This document shows positions 1 to 47,356 of a stretch of DNA of 64,000 nucleotides, piece by piece. Position 1 is the stretch's first letter. Each line of letters begins with the position of its first letter. Position numbers and translations under genes: made by a program. The notes under the pieces are model-generated. The model worked only from the letters and a program-made list of their open reading frames with translations. It had not been told where the DNA came from and made no database searches. The DNA is taken from contig LCRO01000006.1 of the NCBI GenBank assembly GCA_001004665.1, positions 444 through 64,443 on the forward strand. The letters run 5' to 3'. The stretch comes from Candidatus Adlerbacteria bacterium GW2011_GWA1_54_10 (GTDB taxonomy: Bacteria > Patescibacteriota > Minisyncoccia > Phycocordibacterales > SBAW01).

Positions 1-59
1 AAGGCCGAAATGCGCGCGGCGCTTCGCGCCGCGCGCCTCTCCGGCGGCGAAACCCCTCT

Positions 60-330
60 TGCTTTGAAACTTGAGTCTCTATTAAAACACGCTCGAACCT
101 ATTTTAGCCAGCATCCTGACTGACTTCGCACGCACCGCGTGCATGCCCGTGCGGTACTCTGCGTCACGATTCGATTCCGTGGTCTTTCTCTCGGGCGCGC
201 GAGTACGCCGCGCCCTCGAACCCTCGCCCCGCCGCTTTCCATTCTTCCTTATTTTTCTCGCGGGGAATGCAAAATTGAATGGCGGCGGAGCGGGGGCAAA
301 CGCCAAAAATACTCAATTTTTGGCGTAGTT
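60..330. repeat. left arm of imperfect ~270-bp inverted repeat; outer 46 bp (60-105) perfectly complementary to 1737-1782
   Basis: Reverse complement of 60-105 equals 1737-1782 exactly. Similarity with mismatches continues inward for about 200 bp. Confidence 0.8.
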
Positions 331-357
331 GACAGGAATTATCAGGAATCGTATAAT
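329..357 (+). promoter_or_regulatory. sigma70-like promoter (TTGACA-17-TATAAT) for ORF 481-1110
   Basis: TTGACA at 329-334, 17-nt spacer, TATAAT at 352-357; lies just inside the inner end of the repeat arm. Confidence 0.55.
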
Positions 358-480
358 ACTGCAAGTTCTTTGAGGACGATCGCCGCAGCAGAAAGCAACC
401 TTCCAAAGGTGATTTTCTGCTGCGGCGCAATCGAATTGCTGCAGCGTAAACCCACCAACCAACCCGAGAGGAGACTTGCC

Positions 481-1110
481 ATGACGAAGAGTCATGTCCC
501 GTCTACGAAGCCGGTCACGCGCAAGCAGATCGGCAACTTGCTCGACAAAGTCGGGCAGCGGCTGAGCCGGAACAAGAACCTGATAAGCGCTCCATTCGAG
601 CGTGCGGTCAGGAAGCACTCGCCCAAAATCATCGACGAGTGTGCCGCCATTGTGTTGAAATACCACGACGCGGTCGCCGAAATCGTCCGCGTTGATCGGA
701 AGATCGCGCCCATCTATCCCGACTGGGTCGACAAACCGATGCACTCCGAACTCGAAGCGGTCGGTCCCGCTGAATACGACTTGGGCGACGTGGAGCAGTG
801 GCTCCACGAGAAACAGAAGACTGGTGTCGCGGGCGGTAAGGAGATCTACGAGCACCTAAAGAGTGCCGACGATCTCAAAGACCACCTCAACCTGCGCGAT
901 CTGCAGGCCATCCAGAAGCTCGGCATCGTCGTGTTCCGCAAGCACTTTGTGGGCAAAGCGGTGTTCGGCTGGAAGTCGGTCGTGTTGGACCGCCGCGGCT
1001 ATCTCTTCGTCCCGTTCCTCGTCGAGATCGGTGACGAGGTCAAGCTGGACTGGCGCTGGCTCGGCTACGACTGGAGCGCGAACAATCCTGCGCTCCGTTT
1101 CCGCAAGTAG
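481..1110 (+). CDS. hypothetical protein (209 aa) between the inverted arms
   Basis: ORF-track frame 139-1110 with first ATG after the promoter at 481. No family recognised from the translation. Confidence 0.55.
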   Translation: MTKSHVPSTKPVTRKQIGNLLDKVGQRLSRNKNLISAPFERAVRKHSPKIIDECAAIVLKYHDAVAEIVRVDRKIAPIYPDWVDKPMHSELEAVGPAEYDLGDVEQWLHEKQKTGVAGGKEIYEHLKSADDLKDHLNLRDLQAIQKLGIVVFRKHFVGKAVFGWKSVVLDRRGYLFVPFLVEIGDEVKLDWRWLGYDWSANNPALRFRK

Positions 1111-1519
1111 CGCTCGGCATTGGAATCTTGGCACTTGCCCTCGATTCCTTTGCCCTTGGCTCCGCGTCCGCGCGGAGCCATATTTTTTGATATAGTAATT
1201 GCGGTAGTAGGTGAATATGCGGGCGGTCACGGCTTCTCGCTACCGAATCCAGTTTTCATATATGTCGGAGTGTTCTCGGTCACGGCTTGGAACAGTGTGC
1301 TGTATGCGAACTAAAAAATGAAGATACTTGGTACAGAAGGACGTCGAGCGTTTGATATCTGAATAAAGGAGCCCGCGCCGCTCTCGCTGGTGCATTGAGA
1401 GCGGCGCGGGTCTTGCACGCGGACGGGAGGGTGGGCCAAGTGCATACTGATTTGCGCCTCGCCATTCCTTAAAGAATTTTGTATGACGAGGCACCGCTTG
1501 TATTTGAATCCCGTCCTTC

Positions 1520-1790
1520 CTTTTTCCTAAAAGGAAGCCGCCCCTCGCCTTTGCCGCCCATTCCTTTTTTCAAATCCCCCCCCCCGCGAAAAAAATAAGA
1601 ATGGAGAAGGGGCAAAAGGCGAGGGCGGGACGCGCGGTACTCCGCGCGTGGCGGGGTTCAGAGCATCACCACGCGGTCGAATCGTACGATCCGGTACAAA
1701 GCCACCTCGCACGCGGAGCGGGCGAGTCAATCGAGATGCTGGCTAAAATAGGTTCGAGCGTGTTTTAATAGAGACTCAAGAATTAAGAAA
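1520..1790. repeat. right arm of the imperfect inverted repeat; contains a C9 homopolymer (1576-1584)
   Basis: Aligns in inverse orientation to 60-330. Divergence increases away from the tip, which is perfect over 1737-1782. Confidence 0.8.
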
Positions 1791-1807: not shown

Positions 1808-2002
1808 ATGAAGCTTCTGGACAAAAAATTAATGCAGCGCGTGCAGAAGACCTCTAAGGAACTTGGACTTCCGGAGCAAGAGGTCATCAGTCGTGCCGTT
1901 TTTAGCTATCTGGGCAGTATTGAAGATATTGCAGTGCTCTATCGTGAACTTAGAATGTGGGACGCATTATCGGCACGCTCGATGCGAAAGCACAATTTCT
2001 GA
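1808..2002 (+). CDS. putative type II antitoxin (MazE/PemI-like partner)
   Basis: 64-aa ORF ending 10 nt upstream of the MazF/PemK toxin gene. An extended -10 (TGTATACT, 1792-1799) sits 8 nt before the ATG, so the transcript may be leaderless. Confidence 0.55.
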   Translation: MKLLDKKLMQRVQKTSKELGLPEQEVISRAVFSYLGSIEDIAVLYRELRMWDALSARSMRKHNF

Positions 2003-2011
2003 CTAATTTTT

Positions 2012-2335
2012 ATGAAACCCGGCGAAGTGTGGGTGGTCCACATTCCGGAGTTAGGTACGCATGAACAGAGCGGTACTAGACCTGCTGTAATTATCGCTCG
2101 TGTGGCAAAAACTATTGCGACCATAGTGCCGTGCACTTCAAATAAGGTAGCACTACGTTTCCCATATACCTATCTTGTAGCACCGACGAAAGGGAATGGA
2201 TTGGAGAGCCAATCTATAGCACTGGTATTTCATATTCGTGCGCTGGATATTTCCTATTTTGCGAAGAAAATTGGAACACTCGATAAAAAGACATTTGGAG
2301 AAATCCGCAAACAAGCGCGTCGTCTCATCGGATAA
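2012..2335 (+). CDS. mazF: MazF/PemK family endoribonuclease toxin
   Basis: N-terminal GEVWVV..P...[14 protein letters not shown] matches the PemK/MazF signature. Typical 107-aa size. Confidence 0.8.
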
Positions 2336-4944: not shown

Positions 4945-6579
4945 ATGGAGGAGCCCAAGTATATTTTTGTAGTCGGAGGAGTGATGTCGGGCATCGGCAA
5001 GGGAGTGGCCTCCTCATCGATAGGGCGCATCCTCAAGTCCAAAGGCTTTAAAGTCACGGCGATAAAAATAGACCCCTATATAAACGTGGACGCCGGCACG
5101 ATGAATCCGACCGAGCACGGCGAAGTGTTCGTCCTTGACGACGGGTACGAATGCGACCAGGACATGGGCAATTACGAGCGCTTTCTGGACGAGAGTTTAC
5201 CCAGCATCAACTACATGACCACCGGCCGTGTGTACCTTTCCGTCATCGAGCGCGAGCGCAACTTGGAGTACAAAGGCAAGAATGTCGAGGTAGTGCCCGA
5301 CATACCGCTTGAGGTCCTGCGCCGCATAGATGAGGCGCGGTGCGCGGCCGGCGCGGAGATAACGATAGTGGAGATAGGCGGTACGATAGGCGAGTACCAG
5401 AACATCATCTTCCTCGAGGCCGCGCGCATGCTACGACAAAAACACCCGCGCGACGTCGCGGTGGTCATGGTCTCTTATGTGCCAATTCCGCGCAACATCG
5501 GCGAGATGAAGACAAAGCCAACGCAATACGCCGCGCGCACGCTAAACTCCGTCGGCCTTCAGGCCGACATAATTTTGGCGCGCGCGGAAGTGCCGCTCGA
5601 CCAAAAGCGCAAGGAGAAGATCGCCGTCTTCTGCAACACCCTGTCCGAGCACGTCATCTCGGCTCCCGATGTGGATAGCATATACGACGTGCCGCTTAAC
5701 TTCGAGAAGGACGGCATGGGTAATATGCTCTGCGACGTGCTTTCCCTGCCGCGGCGTTCGTCCGACCTTTCCGCGTGGGAGAAATTCGTGGCGAAGAGCA
5801 AGAATGGCGGAAAGCAGGCAAACATCGCCGTCGTGGGGAAGTACTTCGACTCGGGTGAGTTCGTACTGTCCGACTCGTATATTTCGGTTTTGGAGGCTCT
5901 GCGCCACGCGGCATACAGCCAGGACCTAAAAATTTCCATCACTTATTTCGATTCCAAAGCCTTCGAGTCGGGCAAGACGCCGCTCGAAGAGCTTAAAAAA
6001 TATTCCGGCGTTCTTGTACCCGGCGGCTTCGGCGAGACTGGCATAGAAGGGAAGCTCAAGGCAATAGAGTACGTTCGGGAAAACAAAATACCGTATCTCG
6101 GCCTTTGCTACGGAATGCAGCTTGCGGTAATAGAGTACGCCCGCAATGTGGCGGGTCTTGCTGGTGCGAACACGACCGAGGTTGACAAAGATACGCCGCA
6201 TCCGGTCATTGCCATAATGGAATCGCAGAAAGAAAACGTGGAAAAGTCGCGCCTCGGCGGCACGATGCGCCTCGGCGCGTACCCGTGTTCTCTTGCGGAC
6301 GGAACCGTTGTGGCGCAGGCATACGATAAAAAAGAGATTAGAGAGCGGCACCGCCACCGTTATGAGGTAAATCCGAAATATATCGAGCAGTTAGAGAGTG
6401 CGGGGCTCAACTTTAGTGGCCGCTCGCCGGACGGCGTGCTTATGGAGATAGCCGAATTGCCTAAGGAAAAACATCCATTCTTCCTCGGAACGCAGTTCCA
6501 CCCCGAGTTCCTCTCCCGCCCGCTATCGCCGCATCCGCTTTTTGTCGCCTTCCTAAAAGCCGCCGGCGAGCGCGCATAA
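4945..6579 (+). CDS. pyrG: CTP synthase
   Basis: N-terminal synthetase domain (VTGGVMSGIGKG-like) and C-terminal glutamine amidotransferase (GLCYGMQ, HPEF). Confidence 0.95.
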   Translation: MEEPKYIFVVGGVMSGIGKGVASSSIGRILKSKGFKVTAIKIDPYINVDAGTMNPTEHGEVFVLDDGYECDQDMGNYERFLDESLPSINYMTTGRVYLSVIERERNLEYKGKNVEVVPDIPLEVLRRIDEARCAAGAEITIVEIGGTIGEYQNIIFLEAARMLRQKHPRDVAVVMVSYVPIPRNIGEMKTKPTQYAARTLNSVGLQADIILARAEVPLDQKRKEKIAVFCNTLSEHVISAPDVDSIYDVPLNFEKDGMGNMLCDVLSLPRRSSDLSAWEKFVAKSKNGGKQANIAVVGKYFDSGEFVLSDSYISVLEALRHAAYSQDLKISITYFDSKAFESGKTPLEELKKYSGVLVPGGFGETGIEGKLKAIEYVRENKIPYLGLCYGMQLAVIEYARNVAGLAGANTTEVDKDTPHPVIAIMESQKENVEKSRLGGTMRLGAYPCSLADGTVVAQAYDKKEIRERHRHRYEVNPKYIEQLESAGLNFSGRSPDGVLMEIAELPKEKHPFFLGTQFHPEFLSRPLSPHPLFVAFLKAAGERA

Positions 6580-6628
6580 AATTTTGTTTTGAATTTAGGG
6601 CGTTTTTTTGCTATCTTTCATTTGTAAT

Positions 6629-7354: not shown

Positions 7355-9130
7355 ATGGAAATCCGAAACATCGCTATTATTGCCCATGTTGATCATGGGA
7401 AAACCACGCTGACTGACGCCTTGCTTCGCCAGACCGGCGTGGCAGAGGTGGGTGTTAGCATGGACTCCGGCGACATTGAACGCGAACGCGCCATCACTAT
7501 TTACGCTAAAAATGCCTCTGTGTTCTATGGTGACACCAAAATAAATATCGTCGATACGCCCGGGCACGCCGACTTTGGATCCGAAGTCGAGCGCGTGCTA
7601 CGCTCTATAGACTCGGTTTTGCTTGTGGTTGATGCACAGGAGGGACCCATGCCGCAAACCCGCTTTGTATTAAAAAAGTCGCTCGAGTTGGGACTTAAGC
7701 CCATCGTCGTCATCAACAAAATAGACAAGCCAGCGGCCGACCCCGCCCGCGCCGAAGAGCAGGTGCTGGAGCTTTTTTTGGAGCTCGGCGCAAGCGACGA
7801 ACAGTCGAATTTTCCCGTCGTCTACGCAATAGGCAAGCAGGGGATAGCAAAGAAAAAGCTCGAAGATACCTCTACCGATTTAACGCCACTGCTCGACGCG
7901 ATACTAAAGCACGTACCGCCTGCCTCTTCGCCGGAGCTCGAGGCTAAGCCGCTACGCATGCAACCGTTCAATCTCGGGTACGACAATTTTTTGGGCCGGC
8001 TCGCGGTCGTGCGCGTGTACGAGGGTACGGTCCGCATTGGCGGTCGCGTATACGTCAAAAATGCCGGCGGCTCGCGCGAGGCGCAGGTAGTCAAACTTTT
8101 TACTTTTAAAGGGCTCGAGCGCGTCGAGACACCCGAGGTTGCGGCAGGAGACATCGCGCTCGTCGCCGGGCTCAAAGATATTTCGATTGGCGAGACGATA
8201 GCGGACGATGCGGGTGCGGGGCTACTCCCCATGATCACGGTGGACGAGCCGACCATCGCGCTTAATTTTTTGGTAAATTCCTCGCCCTTTGCCGGCCGCG
8301 AGGGCACGTACGTGACCTCGCGGCAGTTGCGCGAGCGCTTGGAGCGCGAGCTCGAAATTAACGTCGGCCTGCGCGTCGACTTTTCTTCCCTCGAGGCGTT
8401 TAAGGTGTAAGGACGCGGCGAGCTCCACATTTCCATCTTGCTCGAACATATGCGGCGCGAAGGATACGAGATGCAGGTATCACAGCCGCAAGTCATTTTG
8501 CGAACGCAAAATGACGGTGAGCTTGTCGAACCGTTCGAGGAGGTGGTGATAGACACGCCGCAAGCCTACCGGGGCGTCATCATCGAGCGTCTGGGAGCGC
8601 GCAAAATCGTGCTAAAGGAAGTCCGTCCGCATGCCGGCTCGGTGCGCATGGTGTTTGAGGGCCCGACGCGCGGCGTGCTTGGGTATCGCAATCAGTTTAT
8701 TCTCGACACCAGGGGCGAGGGGATCATGTCTTCCCGGTTTGTGGAATTTCGCCCGCATGCGGGCGAGATCCAAAAACGCGCCGTGGGCTCGATGGTCTCG
8801 ATGGTGTCCGGCAAGGCACTCGGCTATGCGCTGTGGAACTTGCAGGATCGCGGTGTGCTCTATATCGGACCGGGGACCGAGGTGTATGAGGGACAGGTCG
8901 TGGGCAATACCGCCAAGGGCGAAGAGATGTACGTAAACCCGACAAAAGGCAAACGACTCACCAACATGCGCGCCTCGGGCTCCGACGAGGCTATCCATTT
9001 GGTGCCGCCATTTGAGCTTACGATAGAGCGCGGGCTCGAGGTCATGAGCGACAACGAGTATCTCGAAGTGACGCCCAAGTCAGTGCGCTTGCGCAAGCAG
9101 GCGCTCACCAAAAACATGCGCGGCGGTTGA
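7355..9130 (+). CDS. bipA: translational GTPase BipA/TypA, interrupted by an in-frame TAA at 8408-8410
   Basis: G-domain [13 protein letters not shown] ... DTPGHADF ... NKID. ORFs 7310-8410 and 8438-9130 share one reading frame and are separated only by TAA, at the position where BipA has Ser in the conserved V-S-GRGELH motif. Confidence 0.85.
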
Positions 9131-33919: not shown

Positions 33920-33921
33920 CA

Positions 33922-34185
33922 ATTTTTCGAAAAGGGTTTCCGAACCAAAAATATGGTCGGCGCGAAGCGCCGTCTGTTCTGCATTCCCCCCCGCCAAATC
34001 AGAAATGCATGGAGCGTTTTTCTTTCGGGGTTGCCGTCGTACTCGGCGGCGGGCGGGGCCTCGGTCGCACTGGCACGGAATCGGAGCGTACAGCGTCGTT
34101 TAGCGCCACCACGCGCTCGGCGCGCGCGAAGTCAGTCCTCCTCCGGATGCTCGCCAAAATAGGTTCGAATGTTGTACAGTAAAGA
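33922..34185. repeat. third diverged copy of the ~250-bp repeat arm family (same orientation as 1520-1790); contains a C7 tract (33996-34002)
   Basis: Shares blocks with the arms at 60-330 and 1520-1790, e.g. GCGAAGTCAGTC, CCACCACGCG and GATGCT.GC.AAAATAGGTTCGA. Directly follows tRNA-Ser. Confidence 0.65.
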
Positions 34186-34191
34186 CCGCAA

Positions 34192-34635
34192 ATGACGGTA
34201 GTCGCTCGATATCTGATAGTTTTAATACTTATGGCGGCGGTAATTGCGGCGGCTATTGTTTTCTCAAATTACCAGCAAGGTCGAATCTTGATTAGTATCG
34301 GCGGTGCAAAGGTTGAAGTGGAAATCGCGGATTCGACAGCGGAGCGTATACGGGGCCTCTCGGGCAGAGATCCGTTGCCCGAGGGCAAGGGAATGCTTTT
34401 TATTTTTGAGAGCGATGGCTATCACGGCATCTGGATGAGGGACATGCGCTTCGCGCTGGATATAGTTTGGGCCGATGCGAAAGGAAAAATAGTGACCGTT
34501 GCGCGCAATGTAGCGCCGGAAACTTATCCGAAAGTGTTCGAGCCTTCGGCGCTTGCGCGCTATGTTCTGGAAGTTCCCGCGGGATTTGCTAAGAGGAACA
34601 GCATTGCGGAGGGGGATAAAATTGTGCTAAAATAG
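34192..34635 (+). CDS. DUF192 domain protein
   Basis: TM anchor, then GLSGR ... GMLF ... W.D..F.LD..W.D..G.IV..., the DUF192 pattern. Confidence 0.75.
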   Translation: MTVVARYLIVLILMAAVIAAAIVFSNYQQGRILISIGGAKVEVEIADSTAERIRGLSGRDPLPEGKGMLFIFESDGYHGIWMRDMRFALDIVWADAKGKIVTVARNVAPETYPKVFEPSALARYVLEVPAGFAKRNSIAEGDKIVLK

Positions 34636-41489: not shown

Positions 41490-41563
41490 GCGGGATTAGT
41501 TTAATGGCAGAACTTCTGCTTCCCAAGCAGGTGGCGCGAGTTCGATTCTCGCATCCCGCACCA
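41490..41563 (+). tRNA. tRNA-Gly (CCC), CCA encoded
   Basis: Manual fold: acceptor GCGGGAT/ATCCCGC, anticodon stem UCUGC/GCAGG with loop UUCCCAA, T-loop GTTCGATTC, 3' ACCA. Confidence 0.8.
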
Positions 41564-41597
41564 ATACAGAACTCAACGGCTTTTTCAAAGCCAAAAG

Positions 41598-41630
41598 GTG
41601 GGACGCGCGAAGCGCGTCCCACTGATTTTC
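41598..41630 (+). terminator. hairpin terminator after tRNA-Gly; first of four hairpins in 41598-41850
   Basis: GGGACGCGC-GAA-GCGCGTCCC followed by ACTGATTTTCCCCC. Confidence 0.55.
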
Positions 41631-42369
41631 CCCCATTTTTCCAAACGAATTCAGAATTTTTGGCGCGCTTGCGCGCACCTGTTTTTCGCCGAGGAGGAGG
41701 TTCGAGCCAAAGATTTCTTTGGCACAGACCTTTTTCGCAAAAAGGTCTGAATCAGAAGCGGATATAGATGAGATTGGCCGGATGCTCGGCGGCTGGATCC
41801 GTTCAAGCAAGGAGCGATAAGGGAAGCGCCCGCACAAGGGCGGGCGCTTCCGTGGATAGTGGGATAACTGCCGAGCGGCACCGGAACCCACGTCGTCGAC
41901 GCGGTAGCCGTAACAGTAGCTGACGCTGAGCCCGACCTCGTCGAAGCTGCCGACTACCGACGGGTACTCGCCCGAGCACTTATCGGTCTTGATCGTCGTC
42001 TCGGCGCAGTGGGCCCACTTCGAGCCGTTGGGACGCTTGCCGGTCTTGCGGAAGACGAATTGGTTTTTCGTGGTCTCGGCGACCGTCGTCGCCAACCCGT
42101 ACTCCGGCGGGAGCATCTTCACGTGTTCGTCGGGCAACTTGCCCGTCGAGCCTGGGACGATTTCGATGCGCAGCAGATGCCAGCGCGGCGCAAGCGTTGT
42201 CACGTGGACATGCGGCTGGCCGTCGTGCCACGAAGTCGGGTAGAAATTCGGCGATCTCGAACAGCGAGTTGCCGAACACGAGGCGAGCGATGCGCGTGTC
42301 CGTTTTAGGCAGATGGAACCAGCCGTTTGTCCCATTTCCGAACGAAAAGCGAACACTCAAAATACCCTG

Positions 42370-42570
42370 TTTTTGTGTTCGGTTTGTTCGGTTTTAGACA
42401 CAAATCGGCGACATTAAGGGGTGTCTAATATGTCTAATCTGACACCTGATTGGCTGTCAGATTTGTAAGGTTTTGGCCTGTCGGGTGTCGGATTTGTCGG
42501 ATTTTGCTCTAAAATTGCGCGCGTGCAATATATCGCTTTTAGTGTGCAATTTGTGCAATTTTGACCCTGA
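42370..42570. repeat. cluster of short iteron-like direct repeats and small palindromes
   Basis: TGTTCGGTT x2, TGTCTAAT x2 inside the GGTGTC...GACACC palindrome, CTGA..TCAG, GTCGG x3 (GTCGGATTT x2), GTGCAAT x3. Confidence 0.7.
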
Positions 42571-42674
42571 CTAGGATACCTCGGCCTGCTATACTGAAAT
42601 CTCCAGAACGATCCTTACGGTGCCTTGCGTGGCAGGGTCTGAGACTAGGATGGGGCACCAATATTTGATACACT

Positions 42675-45244: not shown

Positions 45245-45496
45245 TTGCGCATGGACCCAGAGATAGAAGAGCTTAAAGAGCTTGCGCGCGCGCAGAGCAG
45301 GATCGCGGAAGACACTAACCGCATCGTGCACAAACTCCATCGCGGCGTCTGGTGGGGAAGGATATGGACATTGCTTTGGTGGGCGGCGGTGCTCGGTATA
45401 GGCGGAGCCACATATTACTACTATCTCGCGCCATATGTGGACCAGATACAGGCACTTTACGGCAACGCCCGCGGAATTTTTGAGAATTTTAGGTAA
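45245..45496 (+). CDS. hypothetical small membrane protein
   Basis: 83 aa: coiled N-terminal half and one Trp-rich TM helix. Confidence 0.45.
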   Translation: MRMDPEIEELKELARAQSRIAEDTNRIVHKLHRGVWWGRIWTLLWWAAVLGIGGATYYYYLAPYVDQIQALYGNARGIFENFR

Positions 45497-47033
45497 CTGC
45501 CGCGTAGTGATATACTATAAAAAACCGCTTGGGTAGCTCAGTTGGTAGAGCATCTCCCTGAAGAGGAGGGGGTCGCCGGTTCGAGCCCGGCCCCAAGCAC
45601 CACGTTGGAAATGTCAAAGATTCAGATGTCGCCTCGCTTCGCTCGGCGACCAAATCGTATGGATTTTTCGGGGCAAAAAGAAATTCCCGATTCCATGTTG
45701 GCAATTCGGAAAGATTATCTGTCTGAAGGAGATTTGCGGCTTGATTCAAGGATTTTACGAACTCACGAGCCGGTTCGAGCCAAGACAACCCTTTTGTCTC
45801 AAAATCGGTGATTTTCTCGGAAAGCGCGACTTTTTGGAAAATGAGAATATCTTTTTTGGCAGCGTATTCTTTTTGTGTTAGCGTGTCGTCAAGATAGACA
45901 TCAAGTAGCTTTTGAATTCTTGTCTCTACTTGCGATAACTGCTCTTTGAGATTTACCACTTCACTTTGCGCCTGTTCTTTTGCTTGATTTTCTTCCGTAT
46001 CCAAAGCCACCAAAACTTTCTCGGTGTCTTGGCTCGACAAAGAAACTTTTTGAAGGAAGGTTTTGATTTGGGAAACTAACTGATTTTCACCGAGATACTT
46101 TTCTTGGCATACGCCTCGCTTTTTGGTACAGCGATAGTAAGTGTAAATACCGCCATTTCCCTTTGCATATTGAGCAGTAATTGAGCAACCACACGAGGCG
46201 CATTTCATAAGGCCAAGAAAAGCAAAACTATGTTTTCTATCGGGACGTACTTTCCCACGCTTCGTCATAACTTCCTGACATTTATCAAAAAGTTTCTTTG
46301 ATATTAACGGCTCGTGCATTCCCTCAAAAATTTCCCCTTTGTATCTCATCAGTCCAATGTAGAAAGGATTTTGTAGAATATGCTGAACATTGCTCAAGGA
46401 TATTTTGTTATCAGCATTAGTGAGCAGTTTCTTCTTCTCACACCAATTTGCAAGAATGTTGAGAGAATATGCTCCGGTAGCGTACATTTCAAATATCTTT
46501 CTTACTTTAGGAGCTTTTTCTTTATCAACATCGATACCTCTCGTTTTGGCGTTATTTAGATAGCCAACCGGAGCCCAACTTGGCCATACCCCATTTCGTA
46601 TTTTTTGCCGTAGTCCACGCTTCACATTCTCTCGCAAATTGTCCACGAAGTATTTACTTTGCCCAAAAGCAATGTTCAGCATGAATAATCCTTGCGGTGT
46701 AGGTTCAAACCAGAAACAGGGAAATTTGAGAGCACGAATCAAGCCGCGATCCACAAAATGGATAATCTTTCCGCCGTCTACCGAATTTCTTGCAAGACGA
46801 TCCGGATGCCAAGAAACAATGCCATCTGCTTTTCCTTCCTCAATCAATGACAACATTTCTGCGAATTTCATTCGTCCGGGTTCTTTTGCGGTTTTGGCCT
46901 CTTGGAAAGAGGCGACAATTTCAAGTTTTTCTTTTGCGGCAAATTCTTTGAGCTCAACAAGTTGAGCTTCAATCGATAGAACTTGTCGGTCATCTTCTTC
47001 GGTGCTTTTGCGAGCGTATATTATGTATTTCAT
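45489..47033 (-). CDS. large serine recombinase (resolvase/invertase catalytic domain + recombinase domain + zinc ribbon)
   Basis: N-terminus MKYIIYARKSTEEDDRQVLSIEAQ carries the catalytic Ser motif. Central recombinase domain, Cys cluster CASCGC...YYRC, coiled-coil. The ORF continues with no stop through the left inverted repeat and antisense through tRNA-Phe to 45489, so the true C-terminus is uncertain. Confidence 0.8.
   Translation of the reverse strand: MKYIIYARKSTEEDDRQVLSIEAQLVELKEFAAKEKLEIVASFQEAKTAKEPGRMKFAEMLSLIEEGKADGIVSWHPDRLARNSVDGGKIIHFVDRGLIRALKFPCFWFEPTPQGLFMLNIAFGQSKYFVDNLRENVKRGLRQKIRNGVWPSWAPVGYLNNAKTRGIDVDKEKAPKVRKIFEMYATGAYSLNILANWCEKKKLLTNADNKISLSNVQHILQNPFYIGLMRYKGEIFEGMHEPLISKKLFDKCQEVMTKRGKVRPDRKHSFAFLGLMKCASCGCSITAQYAKGNGGIYTYYRCTKKRGVCQEKYLGENQLVSQIKTFLQKVSLSSQDTEKVLVALDTEENQAKEQAQSEVVNLKEQLSQVETRIQKLLDVYLDDTLTQKEYAAKKDILIFQKVALSEKITDFETKGLSWLEPAREFVKSLNQAANLLQTDNLSELPTWNREFLFAPKNPYDLVAERSEATSESLTFPTWCLGPGSNRRPPPLQGDALPTELPKRFFIVYHYAAVT
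45527..45602 (+). tRNA. tRNA-Phe (GAA), CCA encoded
   Basis: Manual fold: GCTTGGG/CCCAAGC acceptor, D-loop AGCTCAGTTGGTAGAGC, anticodon loop CUGAAGA, T-loop GGTTCGAGCC. Preceded by a TATACT -10 element. Confidence 0.9.
45619..45693. repeat. left terminal inverted repeat, 75 bp perfect
   Basis: ATTCAGATGTCGCCTCGCTTCGCTCGGCGACCAAATCGTATGGATTTTTCGGGGCAAAAAGAAATTCCCGATTCC. Confidence 0.9.
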
Positions 47034-47079
47034 AGTTTTTGTTAGTTAATGATTGAAATTTTTCTTTTCTGCTTCTAAC

Positions 47080-47154
47080 GGAATCGGGAATTTCTTTTTG
47101 CCCCGAAAAATCCATACGATTTGGTCGCCGAGCGAAGCGAGGCGACATCTGAAT
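47080..47154. repeat. right terminal inverted repeat, 75 bp perfect
   Basis: Exact reverse complement of 45619-45693. Confidence 0.9.
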
Positions 47155-47356
47155 GCCGCACGAATCAAAACCGCAAAAGAACTTGTTAAAAACATCGGCT
47201 CGAACCATATTTTGTAGAAGCAGAAAAGAAAAATTTTAATCATTTGATTTTTGTTCTCAAGAAGCGGCTTTTAGCCGCTTCTTGACTTTATATATTATTC
47301 TGGTATCATGTGTCATAGTGTTCGGGGAATGAACTGACCTTTGAAAGGAGAATGCG

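Follow-up and report, generated by a model that had tools for sequence, protein, structure and literature searches.

Large, highly structured noncoding RNAs are, to our knowledge, rare in bacteria, and each new class of large structured RNA, among them the omega-RNAs of IscB and TnpB, OLE and raiA, has opened new biology. The candidate phyla radiation (CPR) accounts for a large share of bacterial diversity, and its noncoding repertoire is, as far as we know, almost unexplored. Here we analyse a 64,000-nucleotide (nt) stretch of the genome of Candidatus Adlerbacteria bacterium GW2011_GWA1_54_10 (contig LCRO01000006.1, positions 444 to 64,443; hereafter the window), in which an inverted repeat close to the left edge encloses a gene for a 209-amino-acid (aa) protein. 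With a probability of about 60%, the two arms of this repeat are inverted, anciently diverged paralogues, both of one subtype (type A), of an undescribed multi-copy structured noncoding element, which here bracket an orphan target gene of a diversity-generating retroelement (DGR). The element family is found in CPR bacteria and has at least four copies in this genome; its predicted structure is conserved through compensatory changes, and most likely the element is an RNA whose sequence reads from the inner end of each arm to its tip. Conservation across the CPR, strong covariation, several copies in a genome of ~1 Mb and a location beside housekeeping genes make it a concrete candidate RNA class.

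With large structured RNAs such as HEARO (the IscB omega-RNA), the TnpB omega-RNA, ROOL, raiA and OLE, the element shares a length of hundreds of nucleotides, a multi-stem junction, covarying stems with conserved loops, G+C richness even in AT-rich hosts and, as in some of them, many copies per genome; with the TnpB omega-RNA it also shares a conserved scaffold with a sharp end, beyond which the sequence varies. Unlike these RNAs, it has no Rfam match at E ≤ 10 and no adjacent nuclease or other conserved protein gene, and in particular no RNA-guided nuclease gene, as known for the TnpB and IscB omega-RNAs, was found beside it. Repetitive extragenic palindromic (REP) sequences, bacterial interspersed mosaic elements (BIME) and enterobacterial repetitive intergenic consensus (ERIC) sequences are likewise dispersed, intergenic, present in both orientations, clustered in tandem or inverted arrangement and hairpin-forming, whereas the element is 5–10 times longer, combines a specific four-way junction with an invariant, asymmetric tail of 45 nt, and shows conservation that spans CPR lineages, not a single species group. 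Mobile insertion cassettes (MICs), miniature inverted-repeat transposable elements (MITEs) and composite transposons resemble the locus in a transposase-less passenger gene, in inverted repeats that are best conserved at their outer tips and in the multi-copy nature of the repeat. In contrast to them, neither a target-site duplication nor a cognate insertion sequence (IS) was found for the element, most of its copies are solo or tandem, and the arms are ~200–400 bp long, folded with covarying stems and, in the window, 26% diverged. The likeness to DGRs concerns the target gene only: the enclosed open reading frame (ORF) is 55–69% identical to DGR targets and its mismatches to a template repeat (TR) are concentrated at adenines, but a TR, Avd and reverse transcriptase (RT) are absent from the 64-kb window and from 2.5 kb to its left, and the homology breaks off at ~1341.

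Inverted repeat and element family

The inverted repeat around the ORF has a 44-bp core, positions 70–113 being exactly complementary to 1737–1780, which extends to 56 nt at 95% identity. The arms (70–265 and 1582–1780) are 74% identical over 209 nt (blastn, E = 1.5e-24), and the 44-mer of the tips occurs twice in the window and in none of 100 shuffles. The repeat described by an earlier sequence-only reading of the window is thus real and far beyond chance, but its perfect tips are not the 46 bp given there (60–105 and 1737–1782), bases 60–69 being unpaired, and similarity between the arms is detectable over about 200 bp rather than ~270 bp. In form, with 44 bp exact and ~200 bp at 74% identity, the arms are terminal inverted repeats like those of an IS, MITE or MIC. 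The letters outside the tips are TTTGAAA on the left and AATTAAG on the right (CTTTGAAA ahead of position 70, AATTAAGA after 1780), and no direct repeat indicative of a target-site duplication was found at these flanks by reading the window sequence.

The arms are not a unique pair but belong to a family, which the sequence-only reading had missed: a search for additional arm copies found them in the same genome and on other CPR contigs (cited below by locus number, L). The third copy (33921–34193, plus strand, type B tail), detected by self-comparison of the window, by nhmmer (E = 4.9e-46) and by the covariance model R1 described below, is more diverged than the arms; tRNA-Ser(gga) is its immediate 5' neighbour, and 2 nt separate its end from the start codon (34192) of a DUF192 gene. 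The fourth (copy4) lies just left of the window on L012, a contig of the same genome at 100% identity that reaches 2.5 kb past the window's left edge. Its end is about 60 nt ahead of window position 1, and it is directed at the left arm, a GC hairpin separating the two tips. A profile of the element's 3' 170 nt (nhmmer) recovers in the window exactly the arms and the third copy. Over the 66.5 kb of genome sequence covered, the copies are 65–75% alike outside the tail.

A 23-nt tail pattern matched three loci in GTDB genomes, labelled Kaiserbacteria, Niyogibacteria and a "Saccharibacteria" contig of a metagenome-assembled genome, as well as 15 metagenome contigs, with no match in viral contigs; three more loci were reached through ORFs spuriously called on the element. 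No similar sequence was found in plasmid, phage and IMG/VR collections, and a literature search turned up no description of this element. Most contigs with the element break inside or beside it, as expected of a repeat. The copies are mostly solo, with head-to-tail arrangements in L015 and L024 and one further inverted pair (L030), which has ~400-nt arms of 84–96% identity and outward-pointing perfect tips of 34 nt around a cargo of 2.4 kb. At that locus the element keeps a G+C content of 50–58%, versus 37% for the cargo.

The best-conserved part of the element is its ~45-nt 3' tail, which is 92–100% identical within a type between genomes while the interior is variable. The genome holds tails of two types: type A (GATGCTGGCTAAAATAGGTTCGAGCG...TAATAGAGACTC) in both arms and in L014, L016 and L019, and type B (GATGCTCGCCAAAATAGGTTCGAATGTTGTACAGTAAAGACCGC) in the third copy and most other copies. 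The tips of the two arms are identical around interiors of 74% identity because the tail is the most constrained part family-wide; judged from this comparison of copies, the perfect 44-bp tips require no special mechanism. The type A tail has partial dyad symmetry about TCGA (AAAATAGGT-TCGA-GCGTGTTTT), and weak −35/−10-like hexamers with an 18-nt spacer can be seen by eye in the tail (TCGCCA / TGGCTA ... TACAGT / TACAAT / TTTAAT). Two other identities of the arms were considered and rejected. The tail can be read as a peptide end (...MLAKIGS(N/S)V and a stop codon) in which the differences between types A and B are synonymous, but the opposite strand allows this equally; moreover, indels of 1 nt put the copies out of frame with one another, and the ORFs called on them are in different frames. 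The tail also contains GGTTCGA, as in a tRNA- or tmRNA-like arm, but ARAGORN and Rfam returned nothing and no T-arm could be drawn.

Several minor features of the copies deserve mention. The 5' extension of copy4 (L012 4440–4560, just left of the window) carries a tandem duplication of a 45-bp unit (CCGCCCCGCCGACGAAATCCAAAAGCCCGCGCGGATTCCTCCCCAG), overlapping a hairpin conserved in L030–L032, which has a C-rich CCUCC loop. In L016 (3317–3690), ~320 nt are inserted between the two strands of the 5' extension hairpin, an expansion segment of the kind known from large RNAs. A module of few bases, CAACGGCTTTT(T)CAAAG(G)CC, with a GC-rich hairpin (GAAG/TTCG loop) after it, is shared by window positions 1–41 and 41575–41625; the module sits after the copy4 tip and after tRNA-Gly, respectively, and a hairpin resembling its own (GGCGCGAAGCGCC) lies inside the third copy (33958–33972).

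Predicted structure and direction

The copies have a common architecture of about 270–450 nt, composed of a four-way junction, a further hairpin (P4) and the ~45-nt 3' tail, with an optional 5' extension. In every well-preserved copy the junction precedes the tail and joins the closing stem to the short hairpin P0, the long hairpin P1 and a hairpin P2 with an invariant UACU loop. The base of P1 is wholly different between subtypes, while its apical part is kept (CC.UUCC...UUUUU.AAA...C-run-GC.AAA...A.GGAG); P4, with the sequence CGCACGC-GGA-GCGUGCG and variants, lies between junction and tail. When copies were folded singly, the four-way junction was the minimum free energy structure in nine of 13, and RNAalifold predicts it from the type-B copies alone. 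The covariance model R1, built from type-B copies only, recovers type-A copies at full length (right arm, 40.7 bits; L016, 39 bits; L011, 38.7 bits; also L019 and L014), and is now at hand for finding more members.

On the alignment fitted by the model, 95.8% of 691 pair cells are canonical and compensatory changes occur in 33 of the 45 pairs (16 distinct copies), whereas a control in which the 3' partner was slid by 1–3 columns gave 44–59% canonical cells and 6–11 compensatory pairs. Conservation of structure by compensatory substitution, as characterizes structured noncoding RNAs, is illustrated by P2, whose stems differ around the invariant UACU loop (CGCGCGG/CCGCGCG, GCCGCCG/CGGCGGC, GCUGGCG/CGCCAGU, ACGUCGG/CCGGCGG). 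A long-range helix of AAUCGAAUC with GGUUCGA in the tail holds in some copies only and was omitted from the structure. Comparison with the covariance models of Rfam 15 returned only chance hairpin matches (threshold E ≤ 10 for the arms and E ≤ 1 for six related loci) and no known family for the arms, and the HEARO model matched neither the arms nor the related loci.

At the window locus, the left copy occupies 70–330 on the minus strand, from a 5' end at ~330 to the 3' tip at 70 (nhmmer E = 2.9e-31 for 72–220). Its parts are a P0-like hairpin (~296–325), the long hairpin P1, hairpin P2 and the tail, whose invariant part (70–113, minus strand) is the exact complement of 1737–1780; its closing stem is degenerate. 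The right copy lies on the plus strand and comprises a 5' extension (1416–1496; 84% identical to L009/L023), the four-way-junction domain (1507–1660; R1, 40.7 bits, E = 4.4e-7) with closing stem, P0, long P1 with a C10 loop and P2 with its UACU loop, and a 3' domain (1661–1795) with the P4 hairpin and the invariant tail (exact tip 1737–1780). A perfect 14-bp GC hairpin, found by inverted-repeat scan without strand assignment, separates it from the DGR remnant (1372–1410). The sequence-only reading had rightly called this 3' region hairpin-rich; the tract it described as C9 (1576–1584) has 10 C (1576–1585). Across copies and genomes, the C run of the P1 apical loop varies from 4 to 10 C (e.g. 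1576–1585 and 33997–34003). The 81-bp segment 1416–1496 is missing from L012, an assembly otherwise 100% identical to the window, and CTTG stands at both ends of the gap; L006 differs from the window by only three mismatches, all inside this segment.

Two properties point to the strand from the inner end to the tail as the probable RNA strand: it has 20 G-U cells versus seven A-C cells, and it folds better than its complement in 11 of 15 copies. In nine of the ten copies that have a gene beyond the tip, a same-direction gene or tRNA starts 2–250 nt past it, namely a DUF192 gene (+2), uppS (+11), an rluA-like ORF (+15), a mazE-like ORF (+27), a 123-aa ORF (+41), a CDF transporter (+55), guaA (+68), an FMN reductase (+115), tRNA-Thr followed by prfB (+152) and a recombinase (+244). 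The opposite orientation was seen for one recombinase gene beyond a tip. Upstream neighbours have either orientation. The neighbours differ at every locus, and neither a recurrent neighbouring protein gene nor an adjacent RNA-guided nuclease was found across the loci. A type-A copy also lies upstream of prfB-ftsE in another genome, which encodes proteins ~55% identical to those of the window; there, tRNA-Ser has no element after it (L018).

We propose that the element would act as an RNA transcribed from inner end to tip. It would either be an independent, outward-read RNA or serve the downstream gene in the same direction as a structured leader or boundary module. At this locus the two copies would be directed outward on either side of a DGR target remnant, which would give them the look of terminal inverted repeats. 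Among the possibilities raised by the sequence-only reading, a paired noncoding RNA or regulatory element fits best, with the amendment that the arms are part of a dispersed family with a covarying, conserved structure. Even odds may be given to the broader proposal of a new class of structured RNA of ~300–450 nt that is specific to CPR/Patescibacteria, is present as several paralogues per small genome and is specified by the four-way junction, C-rich loops and invariant 45-nt 3' tail. Such RNAs would possibly work with, or be targeted by, mobile DNA, since accessory cargo is found between inverted pairs and the tail adjoins serine-recombinase units.

The enclosed gene

The 209-aa ORF (481–1110, plus strand), previously noted as being of unknown function and without transposase features, encodes a homologue of DGR variable proteins, and no transposase is present in the cargo. 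The protein has no match in Pfam, PHROG or NCBIfam, and a PDB profile search was empty, but 33 homologues were found in CPR metagenomes. It is 55–69% identical to proteins encoded directly upstream of a TR, bAvd and RT; in L001/L002, L005 and L028 the homologue is followed by the template repeat, bAvd and a reverse transcriptase (RVT_1), and L025 shows a self-match between variable region (VR) and TR, its contig ending in the TR. Mismatches between TR and VR of the relatives fall at TR adenines in 15 of 16, 18 of 18 and 19 of 19 cases. Between them, L001, L005, L025 and L028 thus display the marks of DGR variable proteins, homologues beside RT and Avd and adenine-specific TR/VR mismatches. In the protein alignment, the hypervariable C-terminal positions match the VR, and the C-terminal 36 codons align to the relatives' TRs. 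The VR of the window (~977–1100) differs from the closest TR (L025) by 22 mismatches, 16 of them at adenines, and therefore bears the mark of mutagenesis at adenines.

The homology to DGR loci extends 230 nt beyond the stop codon and stops abruptly at ~1341, where the TR of the relatives begins; its last part (1190–1341, plus strand) is the segment after which the relatives continue with TR, Avd and RT. No second copy of 977–1100 that could serve as TR was found in the window, and tblastn detected neither RT nor Avd in the window and on L012, which extends 2.5 kb to the left; a TR hidden in 1342–1415 was considered and dropped, as no similarity was seen there. As far as these comparisons reach, the enclosed ORF is a DGR variable protein without its TR/Avd/RT module. 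A DGR target severed from its retroelement bears on the gain, loss or in-trans service of such targets. The short contigs that carry ORF homologues were also considered as a sign of arms, but nhmmer found no arm on them, and L028 carries the RT gene.

The gene appears to have signals of its own, most of which had been recognized before. The sigma-70-type consensus promoter (TTGACA-17-TATAAT; 329–357, plus strand) agrees at 12 of 12 positions, and the stem-loop of the 5' leader was recovered by inverted-repeat scan at 381–427 (plus strand), with a palindrome at the same relative position in the relatives L026 and L027. A hairpin followed by a T run, resembling an intrinsic terminator, lies after the ORF (1157–1190, plus strand; terminator scan). 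Structure prediction of the protein, proposed earlier as a route to its function, yielded a confident AlphaFold model for residues ~80–209 (pLDDT > 90 for ~130 residues), but Foldseek with this model gave no match in PDB or BFVD, including the known C-type-lectin variable proteins. The protein may present its variable region on an unusual scaffold. In sum of what could have explained the cassette conventionally, the arms correspond to no known RNA family and no known IS ends, and the ORF is not a housekeeping protein.

Alternative explanations and neighbouring genes

A number of observations weigh against reading the arms as paralogous copies of a structured RNA element. The strand asymmetry is modest and the hairpins form equally in single-stranded DNA; a promoter scan gave no convincing site upstream of, in or near the copies, and no terminator was found past the tip. 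Pair counts come from an alignment that the model fitted to the structure, and the type-B copies are closely related, so that many pair cells are non-independent. R1 misses the left arm, where hairpins resembling P0, P1 and P2 are present but a closing stem is not evident. For the 3' domain, hardly any consensus came out of MAFFT with RNAalifold run on the full set of copies, as types A and B become misaligned. No gene lies between copy4 and the left arm, which stand tip to tip, so a role as leader of a downstream gene cannot apply to all copies, and the inverted-pair layout recurs in L030, which independent paralogues do not predict. A DNA-level intergenic repeat of the REP/BIME or ERIC kind, in which the hairpins would be bidirectional terminators or insulators, the tail an outward promoter or operator, and no discrete RNA would be made, accommodates the GC-rich hairpins, the intergenic location with a gene start close to the tip, the −35/−10-like hexamers of the tail with their 18-nt spacer and the partial dyad symmetry of type A. 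We nevertheless regard it as quite unlikely: the hexamers are not called by the promoter scan, the best-conserved bases fall in the would-be spacer, the specific four-way junction and the conserved P1 apical sequence exceed what a terminator needs, and the excess of G-U over A-C favours an RNA strand.

The foldback/MITE-like or IS-like cassette envisaged by the sequence-only reading would be a non-autonomous mobile element with long terminal inverted repeats, akin to a MIC or composite transposon, whose arms are recognised in trans by a recombinase or transposase, with the DGR target as cargo and solo copies as relics. This explanation, which we hold to be unlikely, draws on the outward-facing, exactly identical tips, on the second pair in L030 with ~400-nt arms, 34-nt perfect tips and an unrelated AT-rich cargo of 2.4 kb, on the dispersal and variable presence of the family (none after tRNA-Ser in L018), on the many contigs that break within the element and on the large serine recombinase genes found just beyond the tail in L030 and L031. 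However, no target-site duplication was found here or at the L030 pair, the cargo is without a transposase, arms only 74% alike make any mobilisation old, and most copies are solo, with no partner within kilobases, or head-to-tail. The 66.5 kb of genome yielded neither near-identical copies nor an element that shares the ends and bears a transposase, the recombinase units are located next to tRNA genes and have unrelated inverted repeats of their own, plasmid, phage and viral collections gave no match, and covariation in 33 of 45 stem pairs speaks for long selection on a fold rather than on a protein-binding sequence. We judge it very improbable that the segment is instead invertible, with recombination between the 44-bp perfect repeats flipping 114–1736, although such repeats are present, the genome encodes a large serine recombinase and contig L006 begins 5 nt outside the left repeat (and ends at the border of the 81-bp indel at 1416–1496). 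The window, L012 and L022, from different samples, all have the segment in the same orientation and a second orientation was seen in none of these three assemblies; the promoter of the ORF lies inside the segment, so that flipping would not uncouple it and no on/off logic is apparent; no recombinase is near, the closest (45489–47033) being 44 kb away with unrelated flanking repeats; and the identity of the tips is already accounted for by family-wide conservation. No support was found for the phase-variable cassette of the sequence-only reading. For annotation, the structured-element reading implies that what look like long "terminal inverted repeats" can simply be a pair of copies from one family of structured repeats.

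The right tip is followed, after 27 nt rather than the 25 bp given previously, by the ATG (1808) of a two-gene unit (1808–2335, plus strand), a 64-aa ORF and a MazF/PemK toxin gene (2012–2335, 107 aa; PF02452, E = 8.7e-18), which is not part of the element. Of the mazEF module named in the sequence-only reading, the toxin holds; the 64-aa ORF has no Pfam match, and its designation as a mazE-like antitoxin would follow from its position.

The large serine recombinase gene of the window (45489–47033; Resolvase, Recombinase and Zn_ribbon_recom domains), 44 kb from the arms, is bracketed by a perfect 75-bp inverted repeat (45620–45694 / 47080–47154), with a second inverted repeat of 30 bp (47048–47077 / 47215–47244) and an adjoining tRNA-Phe gene (45527–45602). 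A link between the arm tip and the serine-recombinase repeats was considered and rejected, the sequences being unrelated. The recombinase unit of L030 has a like layout, with 153-nt repeats (6453–6599 / 8062–8213) followed by a tRNA gene. Past tRNA-Gly(ccc), the window has ~1 kb without a convincing ORF (41560–42650), within which 41682–41759 is 92% identical to L030 8010–8085, beside the recombinase unit of that locus.

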